From Acidobacteriota bacterium (GTDB lineage Bacteria; Acidobacteriota; Vicinamibacteria; Vicinamibacterales; UBA2999): DNA of 63,567 nt. The DNA lies in contig JBKPDL010000027.1 in NCBI GenBank assembly GCA_046727855.1, positions 1-63,567 of the forward strand, written 5' to 3'. Positions 20,645 to 48,539 of this stretch are shown piece by piece. The number at the start of each line of letters is the position of its first letter. Positions within the stretch are counted from its first letter, which is position 1. Below the pieces are notes generated by a model, which worked only from the letters and a program-made list of their open reading frames with translations, had not been told where the DNA came from and made no database searches. Position numbers and translations under genes: made by a program.

Positions 20645-20683
20645 TTGCCGCTCACCGCTGCCGCGATGCAGCCGATGTTAGAC
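20645..20683 (-). other. degenerate, internally deleted attC-like site
   Basis: Minus strand GTCTAAC-ATCGG-CTGCA...GGTGAGCGGCAA; shares boxes with 44411 and 48425 sites; R' missing. Confidence 0.45.
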
Positions 20684-20775
20684 CGCTTCACTGCGGGGCG
20701 TTGCAAATATGCCAACGACCCGACTATGGCGCAACCGTCCCCTGCCTCTGTTCTTCGATCTCGCGTCAGCACGAG

Positions 20776-21639
20776 CTAGCGCGTCTTCTGTCTCGCCCAT
20801 TCAGCGAGAAAGGCCTTCTCGGCTGAGGCAACGTAGGTCTTGTAACCCTCCGGGTCGATGAAGGCCGTCATGTCGCCGCCCAGCATCTTCTGGTATTTCG
20901 CTTCCATGTCGAAATAACTGCCATGAGCGCCGAGTGGGATATCGGCCGGCAGCGACTTCAGCACCTGGAAGGTCCGCTCGTAGTCCGTGGCGATTTGCGG
21001 GTACTGCGGATTGTCCACCAACTTGAAACCGGGGTTCACAGCCGTGCCGCCGATGATCACCACGTTATGCGCTTTGCCGCCCACTCTGGCCTGCATCGTG
21101 AACGTGGTGCATCCCTTCGTATGGCCGGGCGTGACACGCGCGGTGAGGACGGCATCGCCAAGGGTGACATGGTCGCCGTCGTGGAGAACTCGATCGACCT
21201 TGGTGGGCGGATAGTGCGTGGAGGGATCGCCGGCATAGTGGAAGTCGGTCTTGCCACCCGATTCGACAACCGACACATCTCCGTCCATCACCATGTACCG
21301 AGCGCCCGTCAGTTTCTTGATCGTGGCGCTGGCCGCGGCGTGATCCCAGTGCGACTGATTTATCACCAGGATTTTGATATCACTGAACTTGAACCCAAGC
21401 TTCTCGATGCTGGCGCGAATAAGCGGAACGTTCGCTTCCAGATCGCTGTTGATCAGAATGTGGCCCTGCGACGTGGTGATCAGATAGTTCGCGAGGCCTC
21501 TGCTTCCGACGTAATAAAGGTTGTCGGCGATGCGAAACGGCGCAAAGGGCTCCGTCCAGCTTGGATCGTTCTGCGCCTGCGCCGTTTGCGCGCACGCGAG
21601 GCCGATGATGGCCAATAGAAGGCACGTTTGCTTCGACAT
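20776..21639 (-). CDS. subclass B3 metallo-beta-lactamase, Gln116 variant
   Basis: Signal peptide; PFRIADNLYYVG, QSHWDH, PGHTKG, LGAH; start ATG 21639. Confidence 0.9.
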   Translation of the reverse strand: MSKQTCLLLAIIGLACAQTAQAQNDPSWTEPFAPFRIADNLYYVGSRGLANYLITTSQGHILINSDLEANVPLIRASIEKLGFKFSDIKILVINQSHWDHAAASATIKKLTGARYMVMDGDVSVVESGGKTDFHYAGDPSTHYPPTKVDRVLHDGDHVTLGDAVLTARVTPGHTKGCTTFTMQARVGGKAHNVVIIGGTAVNPGFKLVDNPQYPQIATDYERTFQVLKSLPADIPLGAHGSYFDMEAKYQKMLGGDMTAFIDPEGYKTYVASAEKAFLAEWARQKTR

Positions 21640-21752
21640 GCGGCGATTGTAACGTCCAACGGTATCTAATCTCGCCGGCCGATGACCCCGGTGGACCCGG
21701 CGCGCGAAAGAGCCGGTGAAGCCTGGCGGAGCGAAGGATGAAGGACAGGAAC

Positions 21753-21808
21753 TACCGGGACGGAGGTCGCTAGCCGGGACGGAGGTCGCTAGCGGGGATG
21801 GAGGTCGC
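21753..21808. repeat. 19-bp tandem repeat x3, copy B
   Basis: TAGC(C/G)GGGA(C/T)GGAGGTCGC units. Confidence 0.9.
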
Positions 21809-21960
21809 TCACTCACGGGGTGCGCAGGTCGCCTACGCGCACGCGCGGCGCGTCGTGACGCGCCATCACATTTCGCTCGCAGCGGTTGGCTCCCACCAAT
21901 TAGAATGCGTCGCTTGAGTTGTTCGACAACCTGGTTTGTGATGGCCAGCAGGGAGGGGCA

Positions 21961-22446
21961 ATGATTCCAAGACTTGCGCGCGGCATGGTGATTCTCGCTC
22001 CGGCGGTGCTCGTGGCCGGGGTCCTGGCGGCGGCACAAACGTCGGATCCGTTCGTCGGCACCTGGAGGCTGAACGTCGCCAAGAGCAAGTACACTCCAGG
22101 TCCAGCGCCGAAAAGCATCACGTCGACCTACGAGGCCGCCGGAAAGGGCTACACGGTATCCGTCAAGAACGAGCCCGCCTCGGGTCCGGTGCAGCAGTAT
22201 TCCTACACGACCGCGCTTGACGGCAAGGATGTGCCGGTAACCGGCAACAATCCGAACGCCGACATGATTGCCGTGAAGCGAATCGACGCGAACACGCTCG
22301 AAATTGTCAACAAGAAGGGCGGCAAGGTCACCACCACACAAAAACAAGTCGTCTCGGCCGATGGCAAAACGCGAACGGTGACGACGACCGGCACCGATGC
22401 GCAGGGCCAAAAGGTCAACAACGTCACGGTGTTCGAGAAGCAATAA
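21961..22446 (+). CDS. secreted lipocalin-like beta-barrel hypothetical protein
   Basis: Signal peptide; DPFVGTWRLNVAKS, VSADGKTRT, VFEKQ; GGAGG RBS. Confidence 0.8.
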   Translation: MIPRLARGMVILAPAVLVAGVLAAAQTSDPFVGTWRLNVAKSKYTPGPAPKSITSTYEAAGKGYTVSVKNEPASGPVQQYSYTTALDGKDVPVTGNNPNADMIAVKRIDANTLEIVNKKGGKVTTTQKQVVSADGKTRTVTTTGTDAQGQKVNNVTVFEKQ

Positions 22447-22827
22447 TCGCGCAGCGGCGGTTGACCTTTGAGTTGTTGATCGCCGAACGGGCGGGGCGGG
22501 CCAGGCGCCGCGATGCGGGCTGCCGTCATCAACGGGTGGCGCTGTTCAGCCTGGAGCGCCACTGCACAACGTGTGGCGTTCGAGTGTCTGGGCGAAAGCC
22601 AAGCCGCTGGCCGCATCGTGGACAACAGGCATGAGCCGCAAGTCCACCGCCGCCAGGAAATTGCCTCATCCCACACCCGACATACGGCGCTGTCGGGTCC
22701 GGAACCAGTGTGATGTCCGTGCTGCCGCGGTAGCCGGAGGTGTTACGTCAGCGGACTTTACCCCTCCTTTTAAATGCACTCCTCTTCCCAACGCTCACTT
22801 GAGTTGATGACGCCACCGCCGCGAGAA

Positions 22828-22926
22828 CGGGACGGAGGTTGCTAGCCGAGACGACTTGCCTCGCCGAAGCTCGCGGCAAATCGCGAGGCGAGCGAAGGCG
22901 GGAGGTCGCTAGCCGAGACGGAGGTC
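22828..22926. repeat. 19-bp tandem repeat x3, copy C, second unit interrupted by a 48-bp palindromic insert (22853-22900)
   Basis: TAGCCGAGAC|insert|GGAGGTCGC. Confidence 0.85.
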
Positions 22927-22936
22927 AATGTCGAAC

Positions 22937-23788
22937 TCACGAAAGGCGAAATGGTGACGGCTGCGTCCCATCAACGTCCGTAAAACCGTACTCGCGCGCG
23001 AGTGTGCCGACCTCGAGCACTTCACCCGACTTCGCCATCACCTGCGGGTCAGCAGCCAACGCCACGACGGCGCGACCGACATACGCCGGCGTTTCCTGGG
23101 GTCCGCCCGGTCCGCTCAGCGCATCCATCGCACCGGCCTTTCGAAACGCCTGGACGACGCGTTCGGTGCGCATGAAGCCAGGCGCCACGGCCACCGCGGC
23201 GATGCCGTACTCACCAAGCTCCTGCGCCATCGCCCACGTGAGACGCGCCACCGTATTCTTCGCCAGGTCATAAAAAAGATTGCGCAGGTACGGCAAGACA
23301 TCCAGCTTCGCCGTCGTCGTCACGATTAACCCGCGGCCGTGCGGCAGCATGAGGGGAACCGCCAGGCGGCTCGCCGCCAGGTGTGCGCGCACGCCGGCGG
23401 TAAACATGCCCTCCCACTGACTCAGCGATTGCTCCCAGAACGGGACGCGCGGGAGCGGGCCATCCATGGACTCGTATCCGCCCCACACGTTGTTGACGAG
23501 GAGATCGACCCGGCCGTGATCGTCGCGGATGCGGCGAAAGAGCGAATCGACGTCTGCGTCGACGGTGTGGTCGCAGCGAACGGCGATGCCGCGGCCGCCG
23601 CGCGCGGTGACTTCGCGCGCGGTCTCATCGATCGTGCCTTCGACATCGCGCGTCACGGCTTCGCTGCCAACGCTCCGCCCTGAGACATAGACTGTCGCGC
23701 CGGCAGCGCCGAGCTCGCGCGCGATGCCGCGCCCGGCGCCGCGGCTGGCGCCAGTAACGAGCGCCACCTTGTCGCGCAAATCGATCAT
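22937..23788 (-). CDS. SDR family oxidoreductase (DHRS1-like)
   Basis: TGASRGAG, LVNNVWGG, YDLAK. Confidence 0.9.
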   Translation of the reverse strand: MIDLRDKVALVTGASRGAGRGIARELGAAGATVYVSGRSVGSEAVTRDVEGTIDETAREVTARGGRGIAVRCDHTVDADVDSLFRRIRDDHGRVDLLVNNVWGGYESMDGPLPRVPFWEQSLSQWEGMFTAGVRAHLAASRLAVPLMLPHGRGLIVTTTAKLDVLPYLRNLFYDLAKNTVARLTWAMAQELGEYGIAAVAVAPGFMRTERVVQAFRKAGAMDALSGPGGPQETPAYVGRAVVALAADPQVMAKSGEVLEVGTLAREYGFTDVDGTQPSPFRLS

Positions 23789-23868
23789 GTTCTGTCTCCA
23801 CACATCGTGAATCGCACGCAAATGGTCAGGCGATCGGGCTTGGAGGCTGGAGGCAACAAACACTCGCG

Positions 23869-24399
23869 TCAGCGCTCAGTCGGCCTTCCGCCCTGGCTTT
23901 CTCCACCGCCAGTTTGGCGATTCGAATCATCGGCGATCACGCTGATACGCCCATCCCCTTCGAGATAAGCCTTCTTCACCGCGCGCACGTCGTCAACGCC
24001 CTGATGGCGCAGCAGGCTCATCAACTCCTCTTCTGTAATCAGTTCCTGCCGCATATTCCGCGTCAACATCCTCCCGTCCTTCACCAGCGGCAGCGGCGCA
24101 GGGCGAAGCCAGCGAAAAGCGCGCGGGAATTTGAAGCCGAGCCAATCGAGGAAATAATTCCATCCGGCGATGGTCGCGACCAGCACCGCTCCTTCGGTAA
24201 TCGACTTGTATTCACCGGCGATTGCGTTCTGTGCTGCGTCCGCGATGAGCACGACGAGAAGCAGATCGGGAATACCGACCGCGCCAGCCTCGCGTCGAAG
24301 GAAGCGCAACAGGAAAAAGAGGAGCAGATAGACGAGCGTGCCGCGCAGAACGACTTCGGCAAGCGGCACGGAAGGGACAAAGAGCGTTTGCCAGTCCAT
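23869..24399 (-). CDS. DUF421 (YetF) membrane protein
   Basis: LIADAAQNA, EELMSLLR.QGV, AYLEGDGRISV. Confidence 0.9.
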   Translation of the reverse strand: MDWQTLFVPSVPLAEVVLRGTLVYLLLFFLLRFLRREAGAVGIPDLLLVVLIADAAQNAIAGEYKSITEGAVLVATIAGWNYFLDWLGFKFPRAFRWLRPAPLPLVKDGRMLTRNMRQELITEEELMSLLRHQGVDDVRAVKKAYLEGDGRISVIADDSNRQTGGGESQGGRPTER

Positions 24400-24791
24400 A
24401 TGTCAGAGCGCATCCAGCTGCGCGGCAGCTTCGAAGTGTGCGCGAAGAAACTGTTCGACCTGGTCGAGAGCATCGACGCGCTCGAGCGACTGCGGGAAGC
24501 AGCTCACCAACGCAGCGCCGAGTGAATATACGATGCCTGCTTGCCGTATCGAACCACAACTAGCCAAGGGCCCTGCCCTTGATATCCGGCAAACTCCGCG
24601 ACCCTTGGCAATACTTGGAAGAACAATCTCTCCAATATCGACGAGCTAATTACGGGGGCGACGGCTGAGGAACAGGCGCAAGGTGAAGCGCTTTTCATAT
24701 TGCAAAGCACGGCCTTGCAGTGAGGTCGATACCCAGCTCAGGACGGACGCGACTCGATCCTCGATTTGCACGCACGCCGCTGCGGTCCGCG

Positions 24792-24807
24792 TGGCACCCA
24801 TCGTGCA
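24792..24807 (+). promoter_or_regulatory. candidate sigma54 -24/-12 promoter
   Basis: TGGCAC-N5-GTGCA (GG-N10-GC) ending 33 nt before the BON gene start. Confidence 0.45.
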
Positions 24808-24840
24808 CAGTGATGGGCTTTGGAGATGTGAGGACCAAAC

Positions 24841-25488
24841 ATGCAGCTCAAGAACACGCTCCCGACGTTCGCAACGGTTGTGTTCGTCTCTTTGGCGAGC
24901 ATTGCCGGCGCCCAGGGCACCGCGCAGAAGCCCGACCCGAAAGCCACTGCCGCTCAAGACAAACCCAAGTCCGGTAATCCCATCACTGACGGATGGATCA
25001 CGATGAAGATCCACTCTCAGTTCATACCGGAGAACGTGCTCGAGGGTAGTGACATCGATGTCGATACGAATGCAGGTGTGGTGACGCTGAGCGGCACGGT
25101 ACCGAACGCTGCAGCTCGCGAACGAGCAGTGGCAATCGCCAAGGCTACCGACGGCGTTAAGAGCGTCAGCGACAGTCTGAAGATTGCGCCTGCCGTCGAG
25201 AAGGCTGCCGGCACGGGCAAACCCGACACCAGTCGTGAAACGGCTGGTACGGCCAAGGCCGCCGGCCGCAGCGTCAATGACGGGTGGATCAAGTCTAAAG
25301 TGTACGCGCAATTCCTCACGGAAGACGCCCTTGAAGATAGCGACATCGACGTCGACGTTCGTGACGGCAACGTGACGCTGAACGGCACGGTCGCAAGCGA
25401 CTCCGGCCGCACGCGTGCGGTGGCGATCGCGAAGGCAACCGACGGCGTGAAGGGCGTCAAGGACGCACTCAAAGTCGTCAAGAAGTAG
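24841..25488 (+). CDS. dual BON-domain protein (OsmY-like)
   Basis: Two repeats DGWI..K..SDIDVD..G.VTL.GTV..A..TDGVK.V. Confidence 0.9.
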   Translation: MQLKNTLPTFATVVFVSLASIAGAQGTAQKPDPKATAAQDKPKSGNPITDGWITMKIHSQFIPENVLEGSDIDVDTNAGVVTLSGTVPNAAARERAVAIAKATDGVKSVSDSLKIAPAVEKAAGTGKPDTSRETAGTAKAAGRSVNDGWIKSKVYAQFLTEDALEDSDIDVDVRDGNVTLNGTVASDSGRTRAVAIAKATDGVKGVKDALKVVKK

Positions 25489-25529
25489 CGACACGACACG
25501 ACAACGGAAGTGCGGATCGAGGAGGCGAA

Positions 25530-25751
25530 ATGAATGCCGACATATTGCAAGGTCAGTGGAAGCAGCTCAAAGGCGAACTGAAGCGGCAGTGGGGCAAGCT
25601 CACTGACGATGAGATCGATCAGCTCGAAGGGAATGCCCAGAAGTTGATTGGTCTGTTGCAAGAGCGCTACGGTTACACTCGTGACGAAGCAAATCGTCGA
25701 CTTGACGAGTGGCTGACGCAGCAGACAGCGAGAGCGTCGTCGAATCCGTAG
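25530..25751 (+). CDS. CsbD family protein
   Basis: GQWKQLKG..WGKLTDD..LQERYG; GGAGG RBS. Confidence 0.92.
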   Translation: MNADILQGQWKQLKGELKRQWGKLTDDEIDQLEGNAQKLIGLLQERYGYTRDEANRRLDEWLTQQTARASSNP

Positions 25752-26044
25752 CGCGTGGCGCGGTTGATAGCGGCAGCTGCGGATCGCGCGCGAGCTGAAC
25801 GGCCGGTAAGCCTTCTAAGGTGAACGCTTATCGGCCCGCAGCTCGCCTCATCCTGTCACCGGGTGCACACGCGCCTCTGCGGCCAGGGCACATTATCCAA
25901 TCACGACAACTGCGCAGAAGGAGAGAGTCCTCTTCATGGCATGTTGTGCGGACCACAGTCTGCACGCCGCGCGCGGTCGTCAGAAAACGACGGCGTTCGA
26001 CGCACCTCGCGACCACCCAGCGGAAAGAATGCAAGCCGAATGAT

Positions 26045-26114
26045 CTAAATTTTGCCAAATCCCTAAATCGCCAAATCAACTCCAATTCTCCAGATCTCGA
26101 GATCTCCAGATTCC
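26045..26114. repeat. octamer array element, right-arm-only copy 2
   Basis: Units ending CTCCAGATTCC. Confidence 0.85.
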
Positions 26115-26125
26115 TGTTTCACGAG

Positions 26126-26632
26126 CTACGCCATTAGTCGCTCGTAATAGACCAGCGGATTGCCTCGATAACCTACTCTTCCGCGTTCGGCGTACCCGCA
26201 CTTGGCATAGAAACCGCCTGCGCCGGCAAGCGAATCGTATGCGTCGAGGCGAATCGCGTCTGCCGGCCACGCCTCCGCGATGCGGTGCGCGTCGGCCAGT
26301 GCGGCGCGACCGAGACCTTGCCGCTGTTTGCCGACGCGGACGGCCATTCCAGTTAGATACAGAGGTCGCGCGACGGGCGTGAAGTACATGACATCGATCG
26401 CCCACGGTTTCTGGGTCTGCAGTCGCAGCGATGTGAGGATGCGTCCTCCATAGCGGCCTACTCGCACGCGACTCCGCCCGGGCACCAGTTCGAGGCCGCG
26501 GCCGAATGTGTCCCTTGACCAGTGCCCTTCGCCGAACCGGGCGGTGAGATCGGCGGCCACGGCGGCGTGCAGCGTGGTCAACTCCTCGAAATCGTCGGTT
26601 TCGGCATCAGAAAAGGTTAGCTCCGCAGGCAC
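26126..26632 (-). CDS. GNAT family N-acetyltransferase
   Basis: MAVRVGKQRQGLG, FYAKCGY; GTG start with GGAGGAG RBS. Confidence 0.85.
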   Translation of the reverse strand: MPAELTFSDAETDDFEELTTLHAAVAADLTARFGEGHWSRDTFGRGLELVPGRSRVRVGRYGGRILTSLRLQTQKPWAIDVMYFTPVARPLYLTGMAVRVGKQRQGLGRAALADAHRIAEAWPADAIRLDAYDSLAGAGGFYAKCGYAERGRVGYRGNPLVYYERLMA

Positions 26633-27082
26633 ACCTACGACTCCTCCGAGGCATTCATCACAAAGCGAGTTCCACACCCTACTTCGATGTGAAATACATC
26701 GCCTGCGCCATGGTGCGACCGAGCATAGCGTCATTTAGATCTGGGAAGCAGCGGCGCAATTCGTTCTTTGCGCGCCGCTCGGCCAGGTGCCCTTCAGCAC
26801 TCGATCGGCCAGCGACCACGCGACGTGCTCGATCTCGCGACACCGCGTTGCCCATGCGCTGAACAGCTCGGTGGACGCGTCGGGGAAGCCCTCCCTCCAT
26901 CGCTCCTCAATCGGAATCGAGTGGCGGGACGAGGGCGGCATTGTAACGCCGCCGCGGGTCGTTGACGCACGCTGGCGCGCGTCGACATTATGCCCTTCCG
27001 CCGAACAAGTACGCCGCCCAGAAGTGCGGAAAAGTCTGCTTCACTCCGTCGAAGACATTGGCGCCGTACGGCGGCTATCATC

Positions 27083-28312
27083 GTGTCAGTGCGAACCGCC
27101 TGTGTCATTTGCAGTCTCGCCATCGTGAGCACCCTGGCGGTCGACGCTCAGGACTGGCGACAGTTCCGCGGCCCGACAGGTCAGGGGATCGCTGAAGGCA
27201 ACGGGCTGCCAACCGAGTGGAGCACGACGAAGAACGTCGCGTGGAAAACCGCGGTGCCGGGACGCGGCTGGTCTTCGCCCGTCGTCGCGCACGGTCGCGT
27301 GTGGCTGACGACCGCGGTCACCGAGCGCCGCGCCACGTCGCTGCGGCTTCTTGCCTTCGAGGTGGAATCAGGTCGTGTCGCGCAGGACGTCGAAGTGTTC
27401 CGCATGCGCGACACGGAGCTCCTCAACGCGAAAAACAGCCACGCCTCACCGACGCCACTTGTGGACGACGAGCGTGTCTACGCGCATTTTGGATCCGACG
27501 GCACGGCGGCGCTGACGCTCGACGGAAAAATCATCTGGAAGGCGCGTTATGGCTGCATTACACAGCATGGCAACGGCGGCTCGCCGATCCTCTACGCCGA
27601 CCTGGTGATCTTCACTTGCGACGGCTCCGACACGGCCTTCGTGGTGGCGCTCGACGCGCGAACGGGGAAAGAACGATGGCAAACGCGGCGGCGCACGCCG
27701 TGGTCACAGGCCTACGTAACGCCGCTGGTGATTCGCGTCGGAGACACCGATCAACTCATCAGCCCGGCGGCACATTACGCCGCGGCCTACGATCCCGCGA
27801 CCGGAAAAGAAATCTGGCGCGTGCGCTACGACGACGGATTTTCAAATGTGCCGCGGCCGGTTTTCGCACACGGCCTGGTGTTCATCGCGACGGGATTCCA
27901 ACAGCCCGAGATGCTCGCGGTTCGTCCCGACGGCAAGGGCGATGTCTCGCGCACGCACATCGCATGGCGGCTCGCGCGCGGCGCGCCCTATACACCCTCG
28001 CCGATCGTGGCCGGCGATCATCTCTACCTGATCAACGACATCGGTATTCTGTCGTGCATTGCGGCAGAAACAGGCGCCATCGTCTGGCAACAGCGTGTCG
28101 TGGGCAGCTTTTCCGCTTCACCCGTCATGGCCGGCGGCGTCGTCTATCTGCAGTCGGAAGAGGGCGTGACGACGGTGGTTCGGCCTGGGCCGTCGTTCCA
28201 ACTGGTCGCGGTCAACCGGCTCGACGCGCCAATCCTCGCGTCGATGGCGGTGGCCGATCGATCACTTTTCATCCGCACCGAGGAACACTTGTACCGCATC
28301 AAGCGGGATTAG
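27083..28312 (+). CDS. PQQ-binding-like beta-propeller protein (BamB-like)
   Basis: DWRQFRGP, GWSSPVV, repeated A.D..TGKE.W; start approximate. Confidence 0.88.
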   Translation: MSVRTACVICSLAIVSTLAVDAQDWRQFRGPTGQGIAEGNGLPTEWSTTKNVAWKTAVPGRGWSSPVVAHGRVWLTTAVTERRATSLRLLAFEVESGRVAQDVEVFRMRDTELLNAKNSHASPTPLVDDERVYAHFGSDGTAALTLDGKIIWKARYGCITQHGNGGSPILYADLVIFTCDGSDTAFVVALDARTGKERWQTRRRTPWSQAYVTPLVIRVGDTDQLISPAAHYAAAYDPATGKEIWRVRYDDGFSNVPRPVFAHGLVFIATGFQQPEMLAVRPDGKGDVSRTHIAWRLARGAPYTPSPIVAGDHLYLINDIGILSCIAAETGAIVWQQRVVGSFSASPVMAGGVVYLQSEEGVTTVVRPGPSFQLVAVNRLDAPILASMAVADRSLFIRTEEHLYRIKRD

Positions 28313-28450
28313 GTTCGCGGGGTCGCAGCTTCACGGTTCGCACGTTCGCGATGGCGCTCGGCTTCGGCATTCGCACCTCGCCGCGTCGCCCGCTCGGCGG
28401 CGCAAAGTCTCATGATGGAAGCCCCAGCGCCCCGCTCACTCCAAATCTCC
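28313..28450. repeat. GC-rich dispersed core repeat with NGTTCGCN octamer lead-in
   Basis: GTTCGCGATGGCGCTCGGCTTCGGCA..CGCACCTCGCCGCG matches 29801, 30141, 32470; remnant CTCCAAATCTCC at 28439-28450. Confidence 0.65.
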
Positions 28451-28499
28451 TGCACCTCCCGCTCGCGGCAACTACAATCCGACACCTTGGAGGCTGTTC

Positions 28500-29270: not shown

Positions 29271-29274
29271 GCAT

Positions 29275-29337
29275 CGCCGACGATTCGCGCAGGCGCGACC
29301 GCCGGTCGCGCCTGTTGCTTGTCGTCACTCGTTAGAC
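29275..29337 (-). other. attC-like site and/or hairpin between converging genes
   Basis: R'' GTCTAAC contains the TAA of 29332-29748; perfect 11-bp stem 29290-29300/29304-29314; R' degenerate. Confidence 0.45.
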
Positions 29338-29748
29338 GGCGTCGTTCTCGTCCTGCCGCGTTCTCGCGGTAGTGCCAGAAACCCAGATGACAGTGGCCGC
29401 GAGCACAATGATGCCGACACCGGTGAACGTGGCAAACGCAGCGAGCCGCTCGGCGCCAAAGGCCCATTCAACCGGTGCATTGTCGACCAGCATTTCCTCG
29501 AGCGGCTCGACGACCTGTGCGAGGAAGGCCGCGATTCCCACGATCGCCATGCTCGCGGAAACAAGCTGCCTTCTCCACACCCGGCAGACGTACCAGCCGA
29601 CAAGCGCGAACACCGGTATGGCAATGAGCCAATGTTGTGACCACCCAAGGCTCAATCGGTGATGTGTGGGCCGCGCAAAGTGCCAATCCACGTGCATCGC
29701 CGACGCGAGCGCAACGATGACGAGTATGACGCCTGCGGTTCGCCCCAT
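29332..29748 (-). CDS. hypothetical 4-TM membrane protein
   Basis: Hydrophobic segments; HVDWHFARP motif. Confidence 0.65.
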   Translation of the reverse strand: MGRTAGVILVIVALASAMHVDWHFARPTHHRLSLGWSQHWLIAIPVFALVGWYVCRVWRRQLVSASMAIVGIAAFLAQVVEPLEEMLVDNAPVEWAFGAERLAAFATFTGVGIIVLAATVIWVSGTTARTRQDENDAV

Positions 29749-29800
29749 AAGTCAGTTAATTCAACCCAGTTCGCTGTTAATCACGCGACGACCCTAATCG

Positions 29801-29863
29801 GTTCGCGCTCGGCTTCGGCACCCCGCAACTCGCCGCGTTGCCCGGGCGGCCGCACGCGCGAAC
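29801..29863. repeat. 63-bp GC-rich core element with 8-bp inverted ends
   Basis: GTTCGCGC...GCGCGAAC; internal GCGCTCGGCTTCGGCA..CGCAACTCGCC shared with other copies. Confidence 0.7.
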
Positions 29864-30109
29864 TACACAAGTTTCTTGCGGAAGAACTGCAGCCGAAGGG
29901 TCCGCTCGAATCCTAACGCGCGTGCGCGCGTAGGCCCACGTCGTTGTGCGGCTCAACGTCCGAACCAAGCTCCTTGTAGCCACGCTCGCGGACCAGCGCT
30001 CAACGGCCTCGCTCAGTGCTCGCCCAACACCCGATCGCCGGAGATCCGGTGCAATCCAGCACCCTTCGATATACGGGACTGGTGTGGAGTAACACGCGTC
30101 CGCCCGCAT
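29863..30109 (-). pseudogene. AAC(6')-like aminoglycoside acetyltransferase remnant
   Basis: VPYIEGCWIAPDLRRSGVGRAL / RERGYKELGSDVE..N..RAH / ALGFE..FFRKKL across two frameshifts; N-terminus missing. Confidence 0.75.
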
Positions 30110-30169
30110 TCATTAGCTTCGCAAGTTCGCGCGTTCGCCGGTTCGCGATGGCGCTCGGATCACGCGGTC

Positions 30170-30688
30170 TCACTCGGCGTCCCCAGGAATGAAGCCAGCA
30201 TCGCACACCATTGTCCACGATGTGCCCGATTGGCCGACACGGCGAAAGCCTTCGCTCTCGTACAACCCCCTGGCCGGGTTCGCGGGGTTGACGCTGAGGC
30301 TCAGGGCCCGAAGGTTATCGCGACGTGCGGTGTCGATGATGGCGCGGAGCAGTGCACGGCCGATACCTTGGGTGCGGTGCGCGCGTACGACGGCAAGGCC
30401 GAGCTCGGGGACGTCGTCGCTCACAAACCCGTAAGAGTGGACTTCAGGCGTCCACAGCCGAAACCACGCTGCTCCGAGTCGCTGCCCGGTGTCGGTCACC
30501 GCAACGAGCAACCGATCGCCAAGGCGGCCCCAGCCGGCAACGATCTTGGCAAACTCAGGCCGGACTCGGAACGCGCCCAGCGCGGGACGCGCGACGGCTT
30601 CGTCCCAGAAGAATGCTTCAAAGAGCATTTCTTCCAGAAAGGCAACGTCCGATGAATCTCCGGCTCGAATCTGCACTCCCTCAGCCAT
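30170..30688 (-). CDS. GNAT family N-acetyltransferase (paralog of 12543-13064)
   Basis: MAEGVQIRAGDSSDVAFLEEMLFEAFFWD...; start ATG 30688. Confidence 0.85.
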   Translation of the reverse strand: MAEGVQIRAGDSSDVAFLEEMLFEAFFWDEAVARPALGAFRVRPEFAKIVAGWGRLGDRLLVAVTDTGQRLGAAWFRLWTPEVHSYGFVSDDVPELGLAVVRAHRTQGIGRALLRAIIDTARRDNLRALSLSVNPANPARGLYESEGFRRVGQSGTSWTMVCDAGFIPGDAE

Positions 30689-30751
30689 ACAGCGCGATCC
30701 TAGACGGACTGACAAGAGTCTCCTGCGCGCGCGGCGTTGTACGATCGGTGA

Positions 30752-32525: not shown

Positions 32526-32737
32526 TCGCGAATTTGGAGGTTTGGAGGGTTTGGAGATTTGGAGTTGATTTGGAAATTTATCAATTCGGCGATTGGCTGA
32601 TTGGCAAATCTTCAAATCGCCAAATCCCCAAATCCCAAATCCCCAAATCTCCAAATTTTCAAATCGCCAAATCTCGAGATCGCCAAATCGCCAAATCGAC
32701 TCCAAATCTCCAAATCGTCAAGTCTCCAAATTCGCGA
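32526..32737. repeat. octamer inverted-array element, complete copy 3
   Basis: Perfect 14-bp inverted termini TCGCGAATTTGGAG / CTCCAAATTCGCGA; ATTTGGAG arm followed by CTCCAAAT arm. Confidence 0.92.
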
Positions 32738-34272: not shown

Positions 34273-34286
34273 AGGGTTGCATCACC

Positions 34287-34440
34287 CGAATCTGGGGATT
34301 TGGAGGAACTTGGAGATTTGGAGCTGATTTGGAGATTTGCAGATTCCTGGATTTTGCGATTGCTAAATCTCCAAATCGTCAATCACCAAATCGCCAGATC
34401 TGCTCCAAATCTCCAGCTCTCCAAACCCCAAATTCACGCG
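34287..34440. repeat. octamer inverted-array element, complete copy 4
   Basis: GAATCTGGGG ... CCCCAAATTC termini with opposed arms. Confidence 0.9.
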
Positions 34441-35618: not shown

Positions 35619-35622
35619 CGCG

Positions 35623-39043: not shown

Positions 39044-39079
39044 GCTGGTCCAAACGCGTCGGTAGTGCGCGCTGGCGCG

Positions 39080-39207
39080 CGCGAATCTGGAGATTTGGTG
39101 ATTTTGAGATTTGGATATTTTGTGAATTTGGCGATTGCCAAATTTCCAGATTTGCAAATCGCCAAATCGTCTCCAATTCTCCAGATCGCCAACTCTCCAA
39201 ATTCGCG
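39080..39207. repeat. octamer inverted-array element, complete copy 5
   Basis: CGCGAATCTGGAGA ... TCTCCAAATTCGCG. Confidence 0.9.
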
Positions 39208-39256
39208 ATCCCACCCTCTCGAACTTTCACCGCGCGTTCAAGGAGATCGACGCGCC

Positions 39257-40522: not shown

Positions 40523-40593
40523 GGGAGCGGCCGCCTCTTCAGTGTACCCTTCTCGGCCATAGCCGGCTGAAAAGCCCGGAACCGTTGAGCTCC

Positions 40594-40856
40594 ATGGACC
40601 TTACTGGCAGAACGTTCAAGCAACACCAGATCGAGACACAGGTTGGTGCCGGCGGGCTGGGTGTCGTCTATCGCGCGCGCGATACCGTGCCTGGCCGTGA
40701 GGTCGCGCTAAATGTCCTGCCGCCAAGTGCGTTGGACGATGACGAGGCCGCGCCGGCGGTTTTTGCGCGAAGCGCGCGCTGCTTCCGTGCTCAACCGCCC
40801 CAACGTGGTCACCATCTACGAAATCGGTTCCGCTGAGGGGATCGACTTCATCGCCA
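40594..40856 (+). pseudogene. Ser/Thr protein kinase N-lobe remnant
   Basis: GAGGLGVVY, VALN in place of VAxK, frameshift to [18 protein letters not shown], truncated after DFIA. Confidence 0.8.
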
Positions 40857-40870
40857 GGTCGTCATCCGAT

Positions 40871-41296
40871 TCAGGCGTTTAGGCTGGGCCGCGACGAGAC
40901 GATGGTAAATGCGCGACCGAGCAGCGGGCGCGCGGGATGGTCGGCGAGGCGTTCTATCGCTTCGGAAAACGTGACCCACGCGCGCTCACGGCTGCGGTGT
41001 TCGTCCCAGATGTTCGCCTCGACGAGCACGTCCATCAGATAAACGGTCACGACAAACGAGCAACCCCATTTCTCGTACTCGTAGCTGCCGACCGTCGTCA
41101 TCAAGCGGCCGCGGAGACCTGCTTCTTCCCACGCTTCGTTGAGCGCTGTGTCCTGAGAACTGTCGCCGCGGTCGATCATCCCCTTTGGAATGCCCCACCG
41201 ATCGCGATCCTTGCGGCGGATGACGCAAACGTCGACCGCGTTGCCAACGCGGCGAATAGCAATGACGCCCGCCTGTCTGATCCTACGATTCGCCAC
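40871..41296 (-). CDS. NUDIX hydrolase
   Basis: WGIPKG...[11 protein letters not shown] Nudix box. Confidence 0.88.
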
Positions 41297-41310
41297 GGGA
41301 CCAGATTACT

Positions 41311-41422
41311 CGCGAATCTGGTGGAGATTTAGCAAATTTGGCGATCGCGAAATTTTCAAATCTCCAAATCTCCACCTCTCCAAATCTTCAAATCTCCACA
41401 TCGCCACCTCGCCAAATTCGCG
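41311..41422. repeat. octamer inverted-array element, complete copy 6
   Basis: CGCGAATCTGG ... CCAAATTCGCG. Confidence 0.9.
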
Positions 41423-41465
41423 TGGCGTCGGGTCAGAGACGCAAGCCGACGCCGATCATCTCGGC

Positions 41466-42134
41466 TCAAACCCACGTGGCGATTTGCTCCAGCGACTTCT
41501 TCGTGATTGCAGGCACCGTCGCCGACTCTGCTGGGAAGCCTGCAACCAGGATGAGAAATGGGCGCTCGTGCGATGGGCGTCCGAGGATCTCGTTGAGAAA
41601 TCGCATCGGGCTGGGCGTGTGCGTCAGCGACACCAACCCGGCGTGATGAATCGCCGTAATCAGCATGCCGGTCGCGATGCCTACCGACTCCTGCGTGTAG
41701 TAGTGCTTCACCTTTCGTCCGTCGGGGAGCACGCCATAGGTTTCCGCAAAGACGGCGATGAGAAACGGCGCGTCTTCGAGGAAGGGCTTGTGCTCGTCGG
41801 TGCCAAGCGGTGCGAGGGCATCGAGCCATTCTTGCGGCGCCTTGCGGTGATAGAAGTCGTATTCCTCTTTTTCCGCCTCTGCTCTGATCCTGCGCTTAAT
41901 CGCGGGATCGGAAACGACTACGAAATGCCACGGCTGCATGTTTGCGCCGCTGGGAGCCGTCCCTGCGGCACGTAGGCACTCCTCGATGACGTCGCGCGGC
42001 ACTGGCCGCTGAGCGAAATGCCGCACCGTGCGGCGCGTCTGCATCGATTCGCGGAATGCTGTCGCGCGCCGTCTCATGAGATCCACCGGGTATTCCTGAT
42101 AGCCAGACAGAGCGATAAACGTCGGTTGCGTCAT
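41466..42134 (-). CDS. nitroreductase family, iodotyrosine deiodinase-like
   Basis: [43 protein letters not shown]. Confidence 0.85.
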
Positions 42135-42147
42135 TGATGGAGATCCC

Positions 42148-43101
42148 TCAACGACATAGCGCGCGCGCGACATAAAGATCGACGCGGTTGAAGCAACTCT
42201 GCGGCGTGCACGGCTTAGCGGCGGCCGAATCCGCCCGCGCGGACATGAAGTAGAGTGTTTGTTGATCGTATGAGATGAACGGCGCCAGCGTCATCGCTCC
42301 AGCAGCGTTGACTTCTGGCCCAAGCCGCCTGGGCGAACTCCACTCCTGACTCGTGGATGGGCGCGTTGAGACCCAGATATCGATGCTGCCGCCGCGCTCG
42401 GACGCGAAGTACAACGTTTTGCCATCCGCCGACAAGGATGGGGAGAACTCTGCGCGCTCCGAGTTGATTTCGCGAGGTAATGGCCGCGGCGCGCCCCACC
42501 CCTGTTCGCGGCTGGCGCGCGTCGTCACCCAGATGTCGGAGTCCTGACTGTCGAACGTTGTGGAGCGGTTGAAATAGAGTTCCGTTCCATCGGCACTGAG
42601 CGTTGGGAACGCTTCAAACGCATCAGTATTGAGCGGCGCGCCGAGATTCACTGCCGCACCCCACGGGTCGCGCCTGGACTTGCGCGTGGCAACGCACATA
42701 TCTGACTTGCCAAAACCACCGGCGCGAGTCGACCCGAAGTACAAGGACAGCGCGTCGAGGGAGAGGCGCAGCGAGAAGTCGCCGGCGCTCGGGTCGTCGA
42801 TCGGCCCGGCGAGATTCACCGGCTCGCTCCACGGAGCGTCCTTGCTCTGACGGGTGGATACAAACAGGTCCTGCTCGCCTTTTCGAGCGGATGTGAAGAA
42901 CAACTCCCTCTCGTCTGATGACACTGTGGGGCTGCCGTCGAACGCAGGACTGCTGACAACATGCAGGCGCTGTGTCGATTCGAATTCGCAGACGGCGCTT
43001 CGTGCTCCGCCGAGCGAGTTCCGCTCCGGCGCACAACAGGTCGCCAGTGCCCCGATACCAACGCCCGCGACGGTGCGCACAAACGATGATCGAAACGGCA
43101 T
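42148..43101 (-). CDS. PD40/TolB-like beta-propeller protein
   Basis: Repeated P.LS.DG..LYF.S.R..D(I/L)(W/F)V.TR blades. Confidence 0.85.
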
Positions 43102-43143
43102 GGCGTTCAGAGCCGGAGATGAACGTGGTTGCGTATCGTAGAT

Positions 43144-43196
43144 CGGGACGGAGGTCCCTAGCGGGGACGGAGGTCGCTAGCGGGGACGGAGGTCGC
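43144..43196. repeat. 19-bp tandem repeat x3, copy D
   Basis: Two perfect TAGCGGGGACGGAGGTCGC units plus one partial variant. Confidence 0.9.
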
Positions 43197-43298
43197 CTCT
43201 ACCGCTGGACCGCCGAGCGTGGCGCGCCTGATCGGCAATCGCAACTCGCCCAGCCATCCTGTTCGAGCCACTCCTTTACGGCCAAGCTGCGCCACAAT

Positions 43299-43320
43299 AA
43301 AAGGGGGTCAGACCCCTTTT
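43299..43320. repeat. AAAAGGGGTCAGACCCCTTTT-type REP-like palindrome
   Basis: AAAAGGGGGTCAGACCCCTTTT. Confidence 0.85.
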
Positions 43321-43350
43321 CTCCGACGCGCAATGAAAGCGCGACCGGCG

Positions 43351-43755
43351 TCATGTGGCTTTAGGTTGATGCAGGAGCATCCATGACGTGCCGAACTTGT
43401 CGCGTAGCATCGCGAAGCGATTGGCGAACGGTGTCTTCTCCATCTTCATGAAGATCTCGCCACCATCCACGAGCAGGGCGTACGTGCGCTCCGCGTCCTC
43501 CTCACGGTCGAGAGAGAGGGTGAGATAGGCACTGCGCATCGGTTCGGCATGCGCAATGTCCGCCCCCATGAGCACCGTTGAGCCGATCTCGATGCGGGCG
43601 TGAAGGACCTTCTCTTTCCAGTCGGCCGGCGTGGCCGGGTTGGGCTGTTCCCCATGCCGCACTATTCCAGTGACCTTGCCGCCGAGGTGTTGCTCGTAGA
43701 AGCGGAAGGCCTCCTCGCAGTTGCCCCGATAGTTCAGATAGATGTCTAATCGCAT
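43351..43755 (-). CDS. VOC family protein (PhnB-like)
   Basis: YLNYRGNCEEAFRFY, HARIEIG, DKFGTSW. Confidence 0.9.
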   Translation of the reverse strand: MRLDIYLNYRGNCEEAFRFYEQHLGGKVTGIVRHGEQPNPATPADWKEKVLHARIEIGSTVLMGADIAHAEPMRSAYLTLSLDREEDAERTYALLVDGGEIFMKMEKTPFANRFAMLRDKFGTSWMLLHQPKAT

Positions 43756-43834
43756 CGAGTCACTCCGTTCAACTCTGCGCCTCACGGCCACAGTTACGTC
43801 GTCCCGCACTGTCGAAGGATAGAGCCATGTGTCG

Positions 43835-43865
43835 CCGCCTAACGGCTTGCGCGCGGGTTAGGCGG
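43835..43865 (-). other. collapsed attC-like site (R''/R' only)
   Basis: CCGCCTAAC-N13-GTTAGGCGG: perfect RYYYAAC and GTTRRRY boxes at the 3' end of the upstream gene. Confidence 0.55.
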
Positions 43866-44391
43866 GGCGGGCAGATTCGCCAGCGTCGCCTTGACCCATT
43901 GGAGCCACGCCTCATCCGGGCCACGGAGCTGCTCGTTCACTGGGCCGAGTGCTTCCGGGTAGACCAGATAATCCGCCATCGCGCGCCTGCAGAAATAGAA
44001 GAAAGTCGGCTCCACGCCGATACGCGGTCGCGACACAGTCGCCACGTCGACCCTCAGGCCGGATAAAACGATACGGAGGATCGTGGTCGTTGAAGTCGTC
44101 GCGTTCGTTCAGCACGCCAGGCAAGATCACGACGCCTGATGGCACCGACCCCTTGAGAGTTTCCTGGACGGTAAACCGGATCGTCCCCAGCTGAAAGCCC
44201 TGCCTGAATCGCTCGCCGCCCGCTCGTACGACGTATTCGTCTGCAGTCGCTCGCACAATGACATCCGCGCCCCGGAGCATGCCTTCGACAGAAATCGGCA
44301 CTATGCGCGTGCAGGAGTGCACTGGATTGGCGTAGACAACCACGCACGTCAGCGCGAACGCACCATGGACCCGATGTTTATGCCTGAGCAT
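43839..44391 (-). pseudogene. frameshifted secreted hypothetical (cassette-like) gene
   Basis: Signal peptide + body to FLLFLQ; continues in another frame near 43975 as YLVYPEALGPVNEQLRGPDEAWLQWV. Confidence 0.6.
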
Positions 44392-44410
44392 ACGGTCGAA
44401 TAACTGCTCC

Positions 44411-44510
44411 GCTTAGACGCTCTGCGGCTCACCCGCGGTGGCCGCGCGATTCTGATTCTACTCGTCTCGGTGATGAAGCGGTCACCGTCGGGTGCAGTCT
44501 CGGGTTAGCC
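44411..44510 (-). other. integron attC-like site
   Basis: GGCTAAC-CCGAGA-CT(G)CACCCG(A)CGGTGACCGC...GCGGCCACCGCGGGTGAG-CCGCAGAGC-GTCTAAGC; two extrahelical bases; R' degenerate. Confidence 0.75.
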
Positions 44511-44528
44511 AGCAGGCGTTACTGGCAC

Positions 44529-44993
44529 TTGAATGATGTGCGCAAGTTGGTCGCCGCGTTCATGGAGTTCGACGAAAACGTGAGCCTGCAATTCGAGCAG
44601 AACATCAAGACCTACGGTGTCAAGGGTCACAAAGTGAAGTTGATGGAAAACTTCGCCGACCCGGTGTACGTGGGACACCTGCGCGAAACGATCAACGGAT
44701 TCTCGTACGGGAACACGCCGGCGTTGGTGATGAAGAAAGGCGAGCGCGTACGCTGGTATCTCTTTGCCACCACCAACTTCGAGGTGCACGCGCCGCACTG
44801 GCATGGCAACACGGTTGTTGCGCGCCACATGCGAACCGATGTCACCACACTGCTGCCGATGGACATGGTGGTGGCGGAGATGCAACCGGACAACCCCGGC
44901 ACGTGGTTATTCCACTGCCACACCGGCCCGCACCTGCGCGCCGGCATGGTGACGCGCTACATCGTCGAGGAGGCGGCGACGACGACCCACTGA
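44529..44993 (+). pseudogene. multicopper oxidase C-terminal fragment
   Basis: HAPHWHG and HCHTGPHLRAGM copper motifs; no N-terminal domain, signal peptide or clear RBS. Confidence 0.75.
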
Positions 44994-45299
44994 ACGCCTG
45001 CGATTGGAATCCGGTGTCATCGGATTGCGAGTGCACCGGTTATGGTCCGCCGGGTGATGTCCAACGCCGCGGCTTTCACTTGCGTGTGAGACCTCGTCGG
45101 CGCTATGCCGATTCGCCTCATTCCCTAACAGCTGCAGCCCCGGCCGTCCGGAACCCGAATCCGTTCGACGCTCTCCGAAGATTCTGACCTACCGCCCACC
45201 TTAGCGTTATGCTGCGGTTCCGCAGGGCCGGCCGAAACATCCTGGTCGACTTACGTCTGGTTGGGCAGAACCGAACCGACAGCAGAAAAAGGAGACCCT

Positions 45300-45810
45300 A
45301 TGACGATGACACGAAGAGGGCGCGCAAGAATTCTTGGCTACCTGATCGTGCTCGGATTGTCTGCGGCCCCTGCGGCCGCCGACGTCGTCACCGACCGGAA
45401 CCTCATCACGCAAACAGTAGTTGAAACGGCGCGAGCACTCGTCCGACGCCTTCGGGCAGTCTGGATTTTGCGATGGTTCACATGGCTCCGTCGTGCCGTT
45501 TGCGCTGAACGACTCCACTGGCCTGTTGCCTGAACCGCCGCCGCCGCACCTGCTGAGCGGCGCATACGCGAACGCGTACAACGAGGTCAAGACTATTGGC
45601 GCACGCTTCAATAGCTCGCGGACGCCCGAGCAGACCGACTTCGCGTTGTTCTACTCGGACAACTTCGGAAACCAGCTGAACCGGGCCGTGGGGGCAATCG
45701 CCGCCGCCCACCTGAGCGATGTCGGCGACAGCGCGCGCCTCTTTGCGCTTGCGAATATCGCGGCGGCAGATGCCCTCATGAGCTCCTGGAACACCAAGAG
45801 GTATTACGCC
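45300..45810 (+). pseudogene. vanadium haloperoxidase/PAP2-like remnant
   Basis: Signal + ADVVTD(R)N, then frame change to YNEVKTIG..RTPEQT..ARLFAL.N..ADA..W..K..Y; catalytic C-terminus missing. Confidence 0.75.
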
Positions 45811-46175
45811 TTGCTAGTGAAGAGTTTCGGCCAACGCGGCGAATGGTTCGTCCGCGAGGTGCGGCGCAGTTTCGGCTGGTCGTGCACGATTCTTGTGCTC
45901 GAATGGGCGCGGTCGCCGAAGACGTCCAAACACGGGTACAAAACGAACGGCGGGGATTCGCCCCGCCGTTGCAACGTCCGCGCTTCATGCCGAGGCGGGG
46001 CTCACTGCGGTCGCACCAGCACGGGGCAAGGTGCGTTCACTCCCGTCAACGCAGAGATGAGAGCGAGTTTTAGATGCTCTCGTCGCCTCCGCGATCCACA
46101 CCCCGCGAGCGCCATCGACGAAGATTCCCGCGGTGGAGCGCCAACATACCCGAACTCCCGACGCGCACCGGGCGA

Positions 46176-46847
46176 CTACGCCGCGTTGGTTCGTTCGCTT
46201 TCGACGATTCTGCCGCGCTCGAGCCAGGCGATCGCGGCGGCGAACAGGGCATACGCGATCAGCGCCGTAGCCGCCATCGCACGATCCGATGACGGCGGCG
46301 GACTGTACAACATGCCGGCCTGCATCACGAGAATAGCGACGCAAAAAACCGGGATCGCGTAACGCGCGCGACTGGTGCGCGGCCGCGACCGGTTCAAATA
46401 GAGTGTCATGGCGCCAAGGAGCAAGCTTCCTTCGAGAGCGAGTGTCAGATATGGATAGTTCCACAATCCGAACCCGACCTTGGCGGCGTCGTCGTAAAGT
46501 GCGAGGTCGGGCCGGTGGACCACGAGATCGAGCGGCCAATGTGAGAAGACCGCAACTCCGACGATCGCCGCGCTGCGGCCCGAACCGCTGATCAGCCGGT
46601 ACGCGATGGCCGCTATACCCGCCCACGCCAGCGACCCAGGAAGGCTGTGCGTGTAAGGCATGTAGTAGAGGTCCAGGGCGTTCGTCGCGGTGAATCCAGG
46701 GACGATTCGGACCCGTTCCACTCCGAGAAAGACCAAGATCGCCCAGAAAACGTCGAGTAGCTGGACGGCGAGAAAGAGAAGCCAAAGCGGAATACTCGGG
46801 ACCAGCGTCTTCGCGACGAAGCTGGGACCGTAGTGTCCGACGAACAT
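46176..46847 (-). CDS. membrane-bound metal-dependent hydrolase-like protein
   Basis: MFVGHY, QLLDV, YTHSL, SHWPLDLVVH. Confidence 0.8.
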   Translation of the reverse strand: MFVGHYGPSFVAKTLVPSIPLWLLFLAVQLLDVFWAILVFLGVERVRIVPGFTATNALDLYYMPYTHSLPGSLAWAGIAAIAYRLISGSGRSAAIVGVAVFSHWPLDLVVHRPDLALYDDAAKVGFGLWNYPYLTLALEGSLLLGAMTLYLNRSRPRTSRARYAIPVFCVAILVMQAGMLYSPPPSSDRAMAATALIAYALFAAAIAWLERGRIVESERTNAA

Positions 46848-46938
46848 GCATCCCTCCAGCTGCAGCGTGGGAATGCCTAGCCCACGCACTGGCAGCGAAC
46901 CTGCAAACCTGCAACCGTGCGCACCTTAGAATACGTCC

Positions 46939-48024
46939 ATGCCGCTCACCAACTACGTGACGCTTGGCCGCTCGGGTCTGCGCGTCAGCCCGTTCTGTCT
47001 CGGCGCGATGACCTTTGGCGAAGACTGGGGATGGGGATCGACGGTTGAAGAATCGGAAGCGATCCTGGGCCGTTATCTCGATCTCGGCGGCAATTTCATC
47101 GACACGGCGAACGGTTACACAAAAGGTCACTCCGAGGCGATCATCGGCGACTTCTTCGCGCGCACGCCGGGGCGGCGCGATCGCGTGGTCATCGCGACCA
47201 AGTTCTCGACGAATATGTTTCTCGGTGACCCCAACGCCGGCGGCGCAAGTCGCAAGACCATCGTCGAATCGTGCGAGCACTCGCTGCGGCGACTGCAGAC
47301 CGACTACATCGATCTCTACTGGATGCACTTCTGGGATCCGTACACGCCGATCGACGAGACAATGCGCGCGCTCGACGATCTCGTGCGCGCGGGCAAGGTG
47401 CGTTACATCGGCGTATCCGATACGCCGGCCTGGAAAGTGGCGCAGGCGCAGGTGCTCGCGGAGCTGCGCCGCTGGACGCCGTTCGTCGCTCTGCAGATCG
47501 AGTATTCACTGATCGAGCGTACGGTCGAAGGCGAGCTGGTGCCGATGGCGCGCGAAATGGGGCTCGGCATCACGCCGTGGTCGCCGCTGCGCGGCGGCGT
47601 CCTGTCGGGTAAGTACACCCGAGCGAACGCGAAGGACGCCAATCCGGATCGCGGCGATCGCGTGACGGCGTTCCTTACCGAGCGCAATCTTGCGATCATC
47701 GATGAGTTGATTCGCGTCGCTCACGATCTCGGCGCGACGCCTGCGGCCGCGGCGCTCGCGTGGGTGCAATCGCGACCAGGCGTCGCGTCTACGATCGTCG
47801 GCGCGCGGCGGATGCAGCAGCTCGAGGACAATCTCAAGGCGATCGATCTCGTACTGCCGGCGGAGCACGTCGCCGCGCTCGACAAGATGTCGGAGCCGAC
47901 GCTCAACTTTCCGGCGCCGTTCTTCCAGATGATCCCGATGTTCGCGCAGGGAGGAACGACGGTGAATGGGACGCCGTCGATCGAGTGGGCGCTGGCGCCG
48001 AAGACGGGGGATAAGCGGTACTAG
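46939..48024 (+). CDS. aldo/keto reductase
   Basis: LGRSGLRVS, FIDTANGY, IATK, DYIDLY..H, GKVRYIGVS. Confidence 0.93.
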   Translation: MPLTNYVTLGRSGLRVSPFCLGAMTFGEDWGWGSTVEESEAILGRYLDLGGNFIDTANGYTKGHSEAIIGDFFARTPGRRDRVVIATKFSTNMFLGDPNAGGASRKTIVESCEHSLRRLQTDYIDLYWMHFWDPYTPIDETMRALDDLVRAGKVRYIGVSDTPAWKVAQAQVLAELRRWTPFVALQIEYSLIERTVEGELVPMAREMGLGITPWSPLRGGVLSGKYTRANAKDANPDRGDRVTAFLTERNLAIIDELIRVAHDLGATPAAAALAWVQSRPGVASTIVGARRMQQLEDNLKAIDLVLPAEHVAALDKMSEPTLNFPAPFFQMIPMFAQGGTTVNGTPSIEWALAPKTGDKRY

Positions 48025-48075
48025 CGTTTCGAGGGTCCACCTTCCGGGTTCAGGGTTCCAGGTTTACGCCGCGCG

Positions 48076-48375
48076 CTACCCGCGAACCACCGCGCCAAGT
48101 GGCATGGGATGGACCTCGAAGCTAAACCCCGCGCCCGATTGGATGGTCGGATCGCTGTCGGTAAAGGCGCGGGCTGCGTCGGCGGTTTCGAAGTCGACGA
48201 TGCCTACGCCGAAGGCGCCGGCGGGATCAGCTACGAGGCCAAAGAAGATGACGTTGCCTCGCTGCATCCACTCGCGCCAGTAAACCGCGTGTGCTTGCAT
48301 CAGCTGTTGCTCGGCGGGGGTCATGTCCTGGGCAAAGGTCGGGCGCGGCGCTATCAGCTTGCAAAAGAAGTTCAT
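48076..48375 (-). CDS. YciI family protein
   Basis: PRPTF, H..YW, FGLVADP.G, DP motif; GAGG RBS. Confidence 0.85.
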   Translation of the reverse strand: MNFFCKLIAPRPTFAQDMTPAEQQLMQAHAVYWREWMQRGNVIFFGLVADPAGAFGVGIVDFETADAARAFTDSDPTIQSGAGFSFEVHPMPLGAVVRG

Positions 48376-48424
48376 GTCGCCTCTGTACGTGATGGCTATG
48401 CTCGTCCATATTTCAAAACGACCG

Positions 48425-48539
48425 CGGTAACGTCTTGCCGCTCACCAGCGAGCGGCGCTGTCTTGTAACTCGAGCCACACTGAGCTGAGGGCTATTTCAA
48501 ACATCGCGCGCCGCTCGTCGCGTGCAGCGGCTCTCAGGC
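48425..48539 (-). other. integron attC-like site
   Basis: GCCTGAG-AG-CCGCT(G)CAC-GCG(A)CGAGCGGCGC...GCGCCGCTCGCTG-GTGAGCGG-CAAGAC-GTTACCG; begins 10 nt after the stop of 48550-49080. Confidence 0.75.

Follow-up and report, generated by a model that had tools for sequence, protein, structure and literature searches.

Small, decayed clusters of integron cassettes without an integrase are common and have already been described under several names. CALINs, groups of attC sites that have no integron-integrase, are delimited, in the part of Cury et al. 2016 (PMC4889954) that defines them, as at least two attC recombination sites on the same strand, less than 4 kb apart and with no integrase. Isolated chromosomal cassettes without an integrase, or single attC sites lacking integron-integrases (SALIN), are linked to attC × attG insertion in the portion of bioRxiv 10.1101/2022.09.11.507474 devoted to them. 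The Xanthomonas CALINs outlined in bioRxiv 10.1101/2025.06.18.660453 occupy recurrent loci away from the integron, and in the sedentary integrons tallied in PMC5371416 the bottom strand coincides with the leading-strand template for 25 of 30. Here we describe three attC sites, identified by sequence models as damaged integron sites of the family's own type, behind rpoC in an Acidobacteriota bacterium (Vicinamibacterales, UBA2999). The window is the whole 63,567-nt contig JBKPDL010000027.1 of assembly GCA_046727855.1 (G000; 5.2 Mb, 207 contigs, 93.6% complete). It is an ordinary outcome of a known class, CALIN or SALIN, and is best read as an eroded CALIN of small size together with one solitary relic; no account of decayed attC in this lineage was found in open-licence PMC and bioRxiv main texts. 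An original prediction, made from the letters alone, had listed ten attC-like sites on the minus strand and a relic cassette field from 20.6 to 48.5 kb. Three of the ten were confirmed at their coordinates and strand, two are possible and five are unsupported, and the confirmed relics span only 43.8–48.5 kb; a field of the predicted extent is not supported, and ordinary resident genes make up most of those 28 kb.

The attC models used for this purpose were trained on sites of related genomes and contain no sequence from G000. From 101 candidate attC taken from relatives' arrays, seven were dropped (four false-looking, three longer than 105 nt) and 94 were aligned. The alignment covaries strongly, with 93% of cells paired versus 76% when shuffled and 28–45% when slid, which supports the order R''/L''/L'/R' with two extrahelical bases, and a covariance model (CM), R1, was built on it. 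Two subfamily hidden Markov models (HMMs) from other genomes served for the long site at 48425. Regular-expression and half-site weight-matrix scans were dropped as evidence, having failed to separate the relics from a reversed-genome control. The features at issue are the following.

49908–54125, minus strand: rpoC, above the TIGR02386 cut-off, bordering the variable zone on its core-gene side
48550–49080, minus strand: 176-aa cupin-like gene, intact and placed where a cassette gene would lie
48425–48539, minus strand: decayed long attC of a subfamily of about 115 bp, found with the subfamily HMMs
44529–44993, plus strand: C-terminal fragment of a multicopper oxidase (Pfam Cu-oxidase_2), forming a decay junction next to the 44411 site
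44411–44510, minus strand: decayed attC (CM 35.6 bits; E 1e-6 in the window, 8e-5 genome-wide)
43839–44391, minus strand: frameshifted cassette gene for a small protein, with a homolog inside an attC array
43837–43863, minus strand: collapsed attC (CM 18.5 bits, E 0.02), both R boxes intact and the L''/L' stem deleted

The site at 44411 is the one that the covariance model recovers best. Its R'' (GGCTAAC, 44504–44510), L'' (44491–44498) and L' (44427–44433) are recognisable, and its R' (GTCTAAGC, 44411–44418) exceeds the consensus by one base. The site at 48425, whose R'' (GCCTGAG) and R' (GTTACCG) both depart from consensus, scores a mere 11 bits with the general model but is recovered genome-wide by the two subfamily HMMs at E 2.5e-7 and 5.6e-12 (best reversed-genome controls 0.12 and 0.54); general attC models miss such lineage-specific long sites. 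With a tandem pair of attC in a congener (G001:C150) it shares 72% identity. Both sites had been called well-formed, and both do keep the R''-L''-L'-R' order with two extrahelical bases, but their folds tell of damage. Fold z-scores are modest (−1.7 to −2.2), with the inner stems still folding, and the predicted pairing probability of the R boxes (AAC/GTT) is 0.01 at 44411 and 0.00 at 48425, whereas the median for relatives' sites is 0.89 and 5 of 94 fall below 0.05. Per-base free energy at both lies on the weak side of the 90th percentile for the same 94 sites.

The 44411 site has lost its own cassette gene, in the place of which, upstream of the site and abutting it, lies the inverted, 5'-truncated multicopper-oxidase fragment; at this junction a strain in run X1 counts 716 letters as against 253 in the window. 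Copies of the 44411 subfamily in short metagenome contigs carry intact GTTAGCC/GTTAGGC and have other neighbours. Loose ends at window positions 44425–44426 (runs X1, X3 and X6) come from copies that seem to end in GATAGAC (two runs) or GTCAGGC, not in a GTT core; on these short, low-depth contigs, such ends are possibly natural core variants. An 86% paralog of the site lies at G000:C177:6991–7089 (L118), and its R' is likewise one base too long though its downstream gene differs.

The third site is a collapsed one, and the original prediction was right about its perfect GCCTAAC/GTTAGGC boxes, a pair found once in 5.2 Mb and not at all in a Markov simulation. Its L stem was likely lost by slippage. 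Between it and the 44411 site lies the gene at 43839–44391, which is a cassette gene because a homolog (43% identity) in L156 sits between two intact attC of a 12-attC array. The product is likely secreted and has no Pfam match; a putative TIMP/NTR-like fold is a lead only. In a near relative, the protein P0002, 94% identical to the product, is encoded in a single frame and reads through the same collapsed site, so the collapse likely preceded the damage to the gene; the relative's intact gene behind the same collapse orders the events. Two further homologs, P0005 and P0007, end in what we read as a translated attC. The contig of the X1 strain holds both sites with the same collapse and further indels, and a second strain contig of 77 nt joins 43855 to 45404, a deletion of 1548 bp that ends inside the collapsed site and not at the crossover point. 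Beyond 43837, an intact R' start is present.

The 48425 site begins 10 bp past the point where the 176-aa gene stops. Its G|TT followed by non-consensus bases fits insertion at a secondary site under the GWT rule. The G001 sequence upstream of the YCII gene is unrelated, so that no empty site can be read there. In L139 (G021, another genus), at 7112–9188, homologs of the 176-aa gene and of a NUDIX gene stand in the same order and orientation with no attC, and this pair lies about 10–12 kb behind rpoC. In the protein clusters to which the 176-aa product belongs, Acidobacteriota is the most frequent taxon, in keeping with that phylum.

No IntI (integron integrase) was found in G000: the best TIGR02249 score, 81 bits, falls short of the 265-bit cut-off, and tblastn with the IntI of four relatives gave no full-length match above 34% identity and none in the window. 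The contig carries no intI over the 43 kb on one side of the sites and the 15 kb on the other. With damage at all three sites, the earlier view of eroded attC relics without an integrase holds. IntI is frequent in this soil family, scoring above the cut-off in 64 of 138 genomes (and in 14 of 41 in a smaller survey), and was found in none of five genomes of the organism's own genus (94, 98, 69, 63 and 75% complete). Six attC relics were recognised across G000, on C157, C177 and C165 and three in the window, plus a doubtful one on C9. The sole near-intact attC (G000:C157:973–1047, L116, 66 bits) lies near the contig start, where an unassembled integron would best be sought. Of 19 congener sites, 8 retain both core triplets, compared with 96 of 130 held-out sites from other genera (Fisher p 0.008, related genomes not being independent), and attC decay is, on the sequences compared, genus-wide. 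A genus-specific attC variant with a GTC core was rejected; GTCAGGC is sporadic in other genera too and is treated as decay or natural variation.

With spacings of 0.55 and 3.9 kb and no integrase, the three sites would all cluster as a CALIN if detected, and with our own family models they do form such a cluster. Its small size and the lack of a nearby intI pseudogene are both typical of the CALINs characterized in the corresponding part of PMC4889954. The sites differ in being damaged throughout and in the resident genes that intervene between 44510 and 48425, because of which a 4-kb limit would merge what are likely two distinct insertions. To SALINs, the locus is likened by its isolated chromosomal cassettes without an integrase, by the fit of 48425 to the GWT rule, and by the collapsed site, which matches the domestication through attC slippage deletion proposed in the relevant portion of bioRxiv 10.1101/2022.09.11.507474; its value as an example lies in this fit with a deletion proposed to fix cassettes in chromosomes. 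However, 43837–44510 differs from a single insertion in being a fragment of several cassettes whose downstream R' is intact; its route of insertion is a matter of inference here, and the cargo is decaying, not clearly domesticated. The Xanthomonas clusters, according to the part of bioRxiv 10.1101/2025.06.18.660453 that surveys them, similarly recur without an integrase at chromosomal places within a genus, whereas here the relics are non-orthologous, lie in a broad zone, and intI was seen in no genus member searched.

The window end carries tuf, a tRNA, secE, nusG, rplKAJL, rpoB and rpoC, named from translations, the last two confirmed by profile search, and an Rfam search gave a single match, a tRNA. 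In all relatives examined, the DNA that directly follows rpoC is different. Most window genes between 0.4 and 40.5 kb are resident, being collinear in G001 on three contigs, mostly at 81–91% DNA identity and with no attC at the corresponding places, and several genes of the 40.6–49.8 kb part are found at other positions of the G001 zone. Among the latter are homologs of the hydrolase-like, aldo-keto reductase and YCII genes that lie between 44510 and 48425, and the earlier alternative of cassettes dispersed among resident genes comes close to this arrangement. A shuffled subset of window genes lies within 120 kb of rpoC in G004. The region downstream of rpoC is an accessory zone, made up of resident genes and subject to rearrangement. 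It has its own relics in congeners, C217:291 (59.5 bits) and C217:20686 (31.3 bits) in G001 and one weak relic in G002, which are different from, and non-orthologous to, those of the window; a relic on G000:C165, a contig put beside the window by synteny only, is common to G001.

At a probability of roughly 0.7, we read the relics as stranded array fragments and single cassettes in a rearranging zone after rpoC, now eroding. A fragment of at least two and probably three cassettes (44411, 43837 and the R' start beyond) would have arrived, and 48425 would have come separately as a single cassette, in either case by way of a trans-acting IntI that used secondary (attG-type) sites or through ordinary horizontal transfer. 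Without IntI, selection on the sites would have lapsed, R boxes would have mutated and one hairpin would have been lost through slippage. The cargo would now be disappearing as well, by frameshifts and by deletions that are not site-specific and vary from strain to strain. What is shown is that the sites are attC, that all three are damaged, that two of them bracket one true cassette gene, that the assembly has no IntI and that resident genes intervene; the arrival route and the loss of activity are what we infer, and the sites are predicted to be non-recombinogenic. Several observations weigh against this account. No attC follows the gene in any of 15 homolog loci of the 176-aa gene (one locus cut before the stop), and four of five flanked homolog loci of the 43839–44391 gene are without attC, these four being more distant homologs than the one in L156. 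No empty-site allele was found and the arrival route was not observed, and the 1548-bp deletion is known from the one 77-nt contig alone. An intI could also be unassembled in a genome that is 93.6% complete in 207 contigs; intI is frequently close to contig ends in family genomes, and three of the four congeners are merely 63–75% complete. A wider version, in which the rpoC zone of an integrase-less genus would be a recurrent, orientation-biased sink for cassettes supplied in trans, with an attC series running from intact through core-mutated to slippage-collapsed and collapse coming before gene damage, is in our view rather doubtful; if true, it would be direct field evidence of cassette domestication, from integron cargo to ordinary chromosome.

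That one large sedentary integron once stood beside rpoC, its attC now mostly vanished and its cassette shuffling explaining the changes in gene order, is unlikely. The order is indeed shuffled among congeners, three of the six genome relics fall inside 4.7 kb, and all zone relics share the rpoC orientation (three in the window, one on G000:C165, two on G001:C217 and the weak one in G002), an orientation in which the bottom strand likely coincides with the leading-strand template, like that of the sedentary chromosomal integrons treated in the applicable part of PMC5371416. This orientation is not independent evidence, because 46 of the 63 listed window open reading frames (ORFs) are on the minus strand anyway; the window, unlike such integrons, has neither intI nor a contiguous array, its attC subfamilies are heterogeneous, and the resident genes include operons and plus-strand genes. 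Relatives speak in the same sense: no IntI occurs in the stretches of G001, G002, G004, G021 or six other 20-kb pieces, and where intI was located in rpoC-bearing relatives, it is on a different contig or more than 600 kb off. None of the 16 CM matches of G004 falls within 120 kb downstream of rpoC, and the stretches of 12 other genera gave three weak attC matches only (E 0.03–0.8). An ancestral integron at rpoC was rejected, no intI being near rpoC in any stretch examined.

The hairpins might instead have been retained as terminators or mRNA structures of domesticated cassette genes, with their inner stems still folding, a neat 27-nt collapsed hairpin common to near relatives, P0002 keeping its gene in frame and the C165 relic shared with G001. 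This is quite unlikely when the cassette gene is frameshifted in the window, has more indels in the X1 strain and is deleted in another haplotype, and when no U-tract follows the sites. Cassettes still usable, moved by an unassembled or trans-acting integrase, would suit the near-intact attC on C157, the commonness of IntI in the family and the mobilisation of CALIN cassettes in trans set out in the pertinent part of PMC4889954. Against this very unlikely alternative, all three sites have broken R boxes or a deleted stem, and no cassette-excising G|TT joint occurs among the matches listed (contigs of six runs). Chance GC-rich hairpins or repeats resembling repetitive extragenic palindromes (REP) could mimic attC, and the modest fold z-scores, the failure of half-site weight matrices to beat the reversed-genome control and the five unsupported sites of ten are in keeping with that. 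For the three main sites, however, this explanation is hardly credible and already refuted by E values between 1e-6 and 6e-12 for models trained on other genomes, by loop sequence in common with real arrayed attC and by the cassette gene between two sites. We retain the stranded and eroding fragments as the preferred reading.

Two of the other candidates are possible sites.

20645–20683, minus strand: possible deleted attC scrap, unconfirmed, with R'' and the start of L'', then L'
49090–49160, minus strand: possible strongly degenerate attC, unconfirmed (HMM E 0.11), upstream of the 176-aa gene

The one at 20645, proposed as a deleted copy, carries one of eight R''+TGSA motifs in the genome versus one in simulation and lies at a synteny break with G001, but has no CM or HMM match. 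The would-be R' at 49090 resembles the ribosome-binding region of a 176-aa homolog in L144. Positions 29331–29337, put forward as an R'' containing a stop codon, are a stop codon followed by a perfect but plain terminator-like hairpin; 15590 is the conserved 3' end of a DUF3291 gene (about 90% in a congener), and 2157, 22481 and 26998 match no attC model.

Cassette cargo gives no further sign of a larger field. The GNAT, AAC(6')-like and VOC genes that had been cited as typical cargo are present, but none is followed by attC, nor is any of 29 VOC homolog loci. None of the 136 cassette ORFs of relatives (recovered for 136 of 202 sites) has a homolog in the window that reaches 45% identity, and cassette-family cargo is not enriched there (0 of 4 genome loci from that identity upwards; with no identity threshold 2 of 43, each a resident gene). 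A broken AAC(6')-like acetyltransferase gene at 29777–30150 is without attC and absent from the searched G001 zone, in which neither of two GNAT paralogs (12543–13130 and 30170–30688, 72% DNA identity) was found. An intact subclass B3 metallo-beta-lactamase at 20776–21615 (NCBIfam 320 versus a cut-off of 240 bits) is resident, with 86% identity in G001, and a distant broken B3 homolog lies within an attC cluster of G004 (L177).

Dispersed repeats are also found in the window. Intergenic elements made of an 8-bp repeat (unit about ATTTGGAG), often in inverted pairs, have matches on 59 contigs; seven lie in the window, one of them directly after rpoC.

15226–15330, 26050–26120, 32530–32736, 34286–34438, 39080–39210, 41322–41422 and 49808–49906: 8-bp-repeat elements

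Another dispersed repeat, built on a unit of 19 bp (CGGGACGGAGGTCGCTAGC), occurs at 292–343, 21737–21827, 22828–22947 and 43125–43215.

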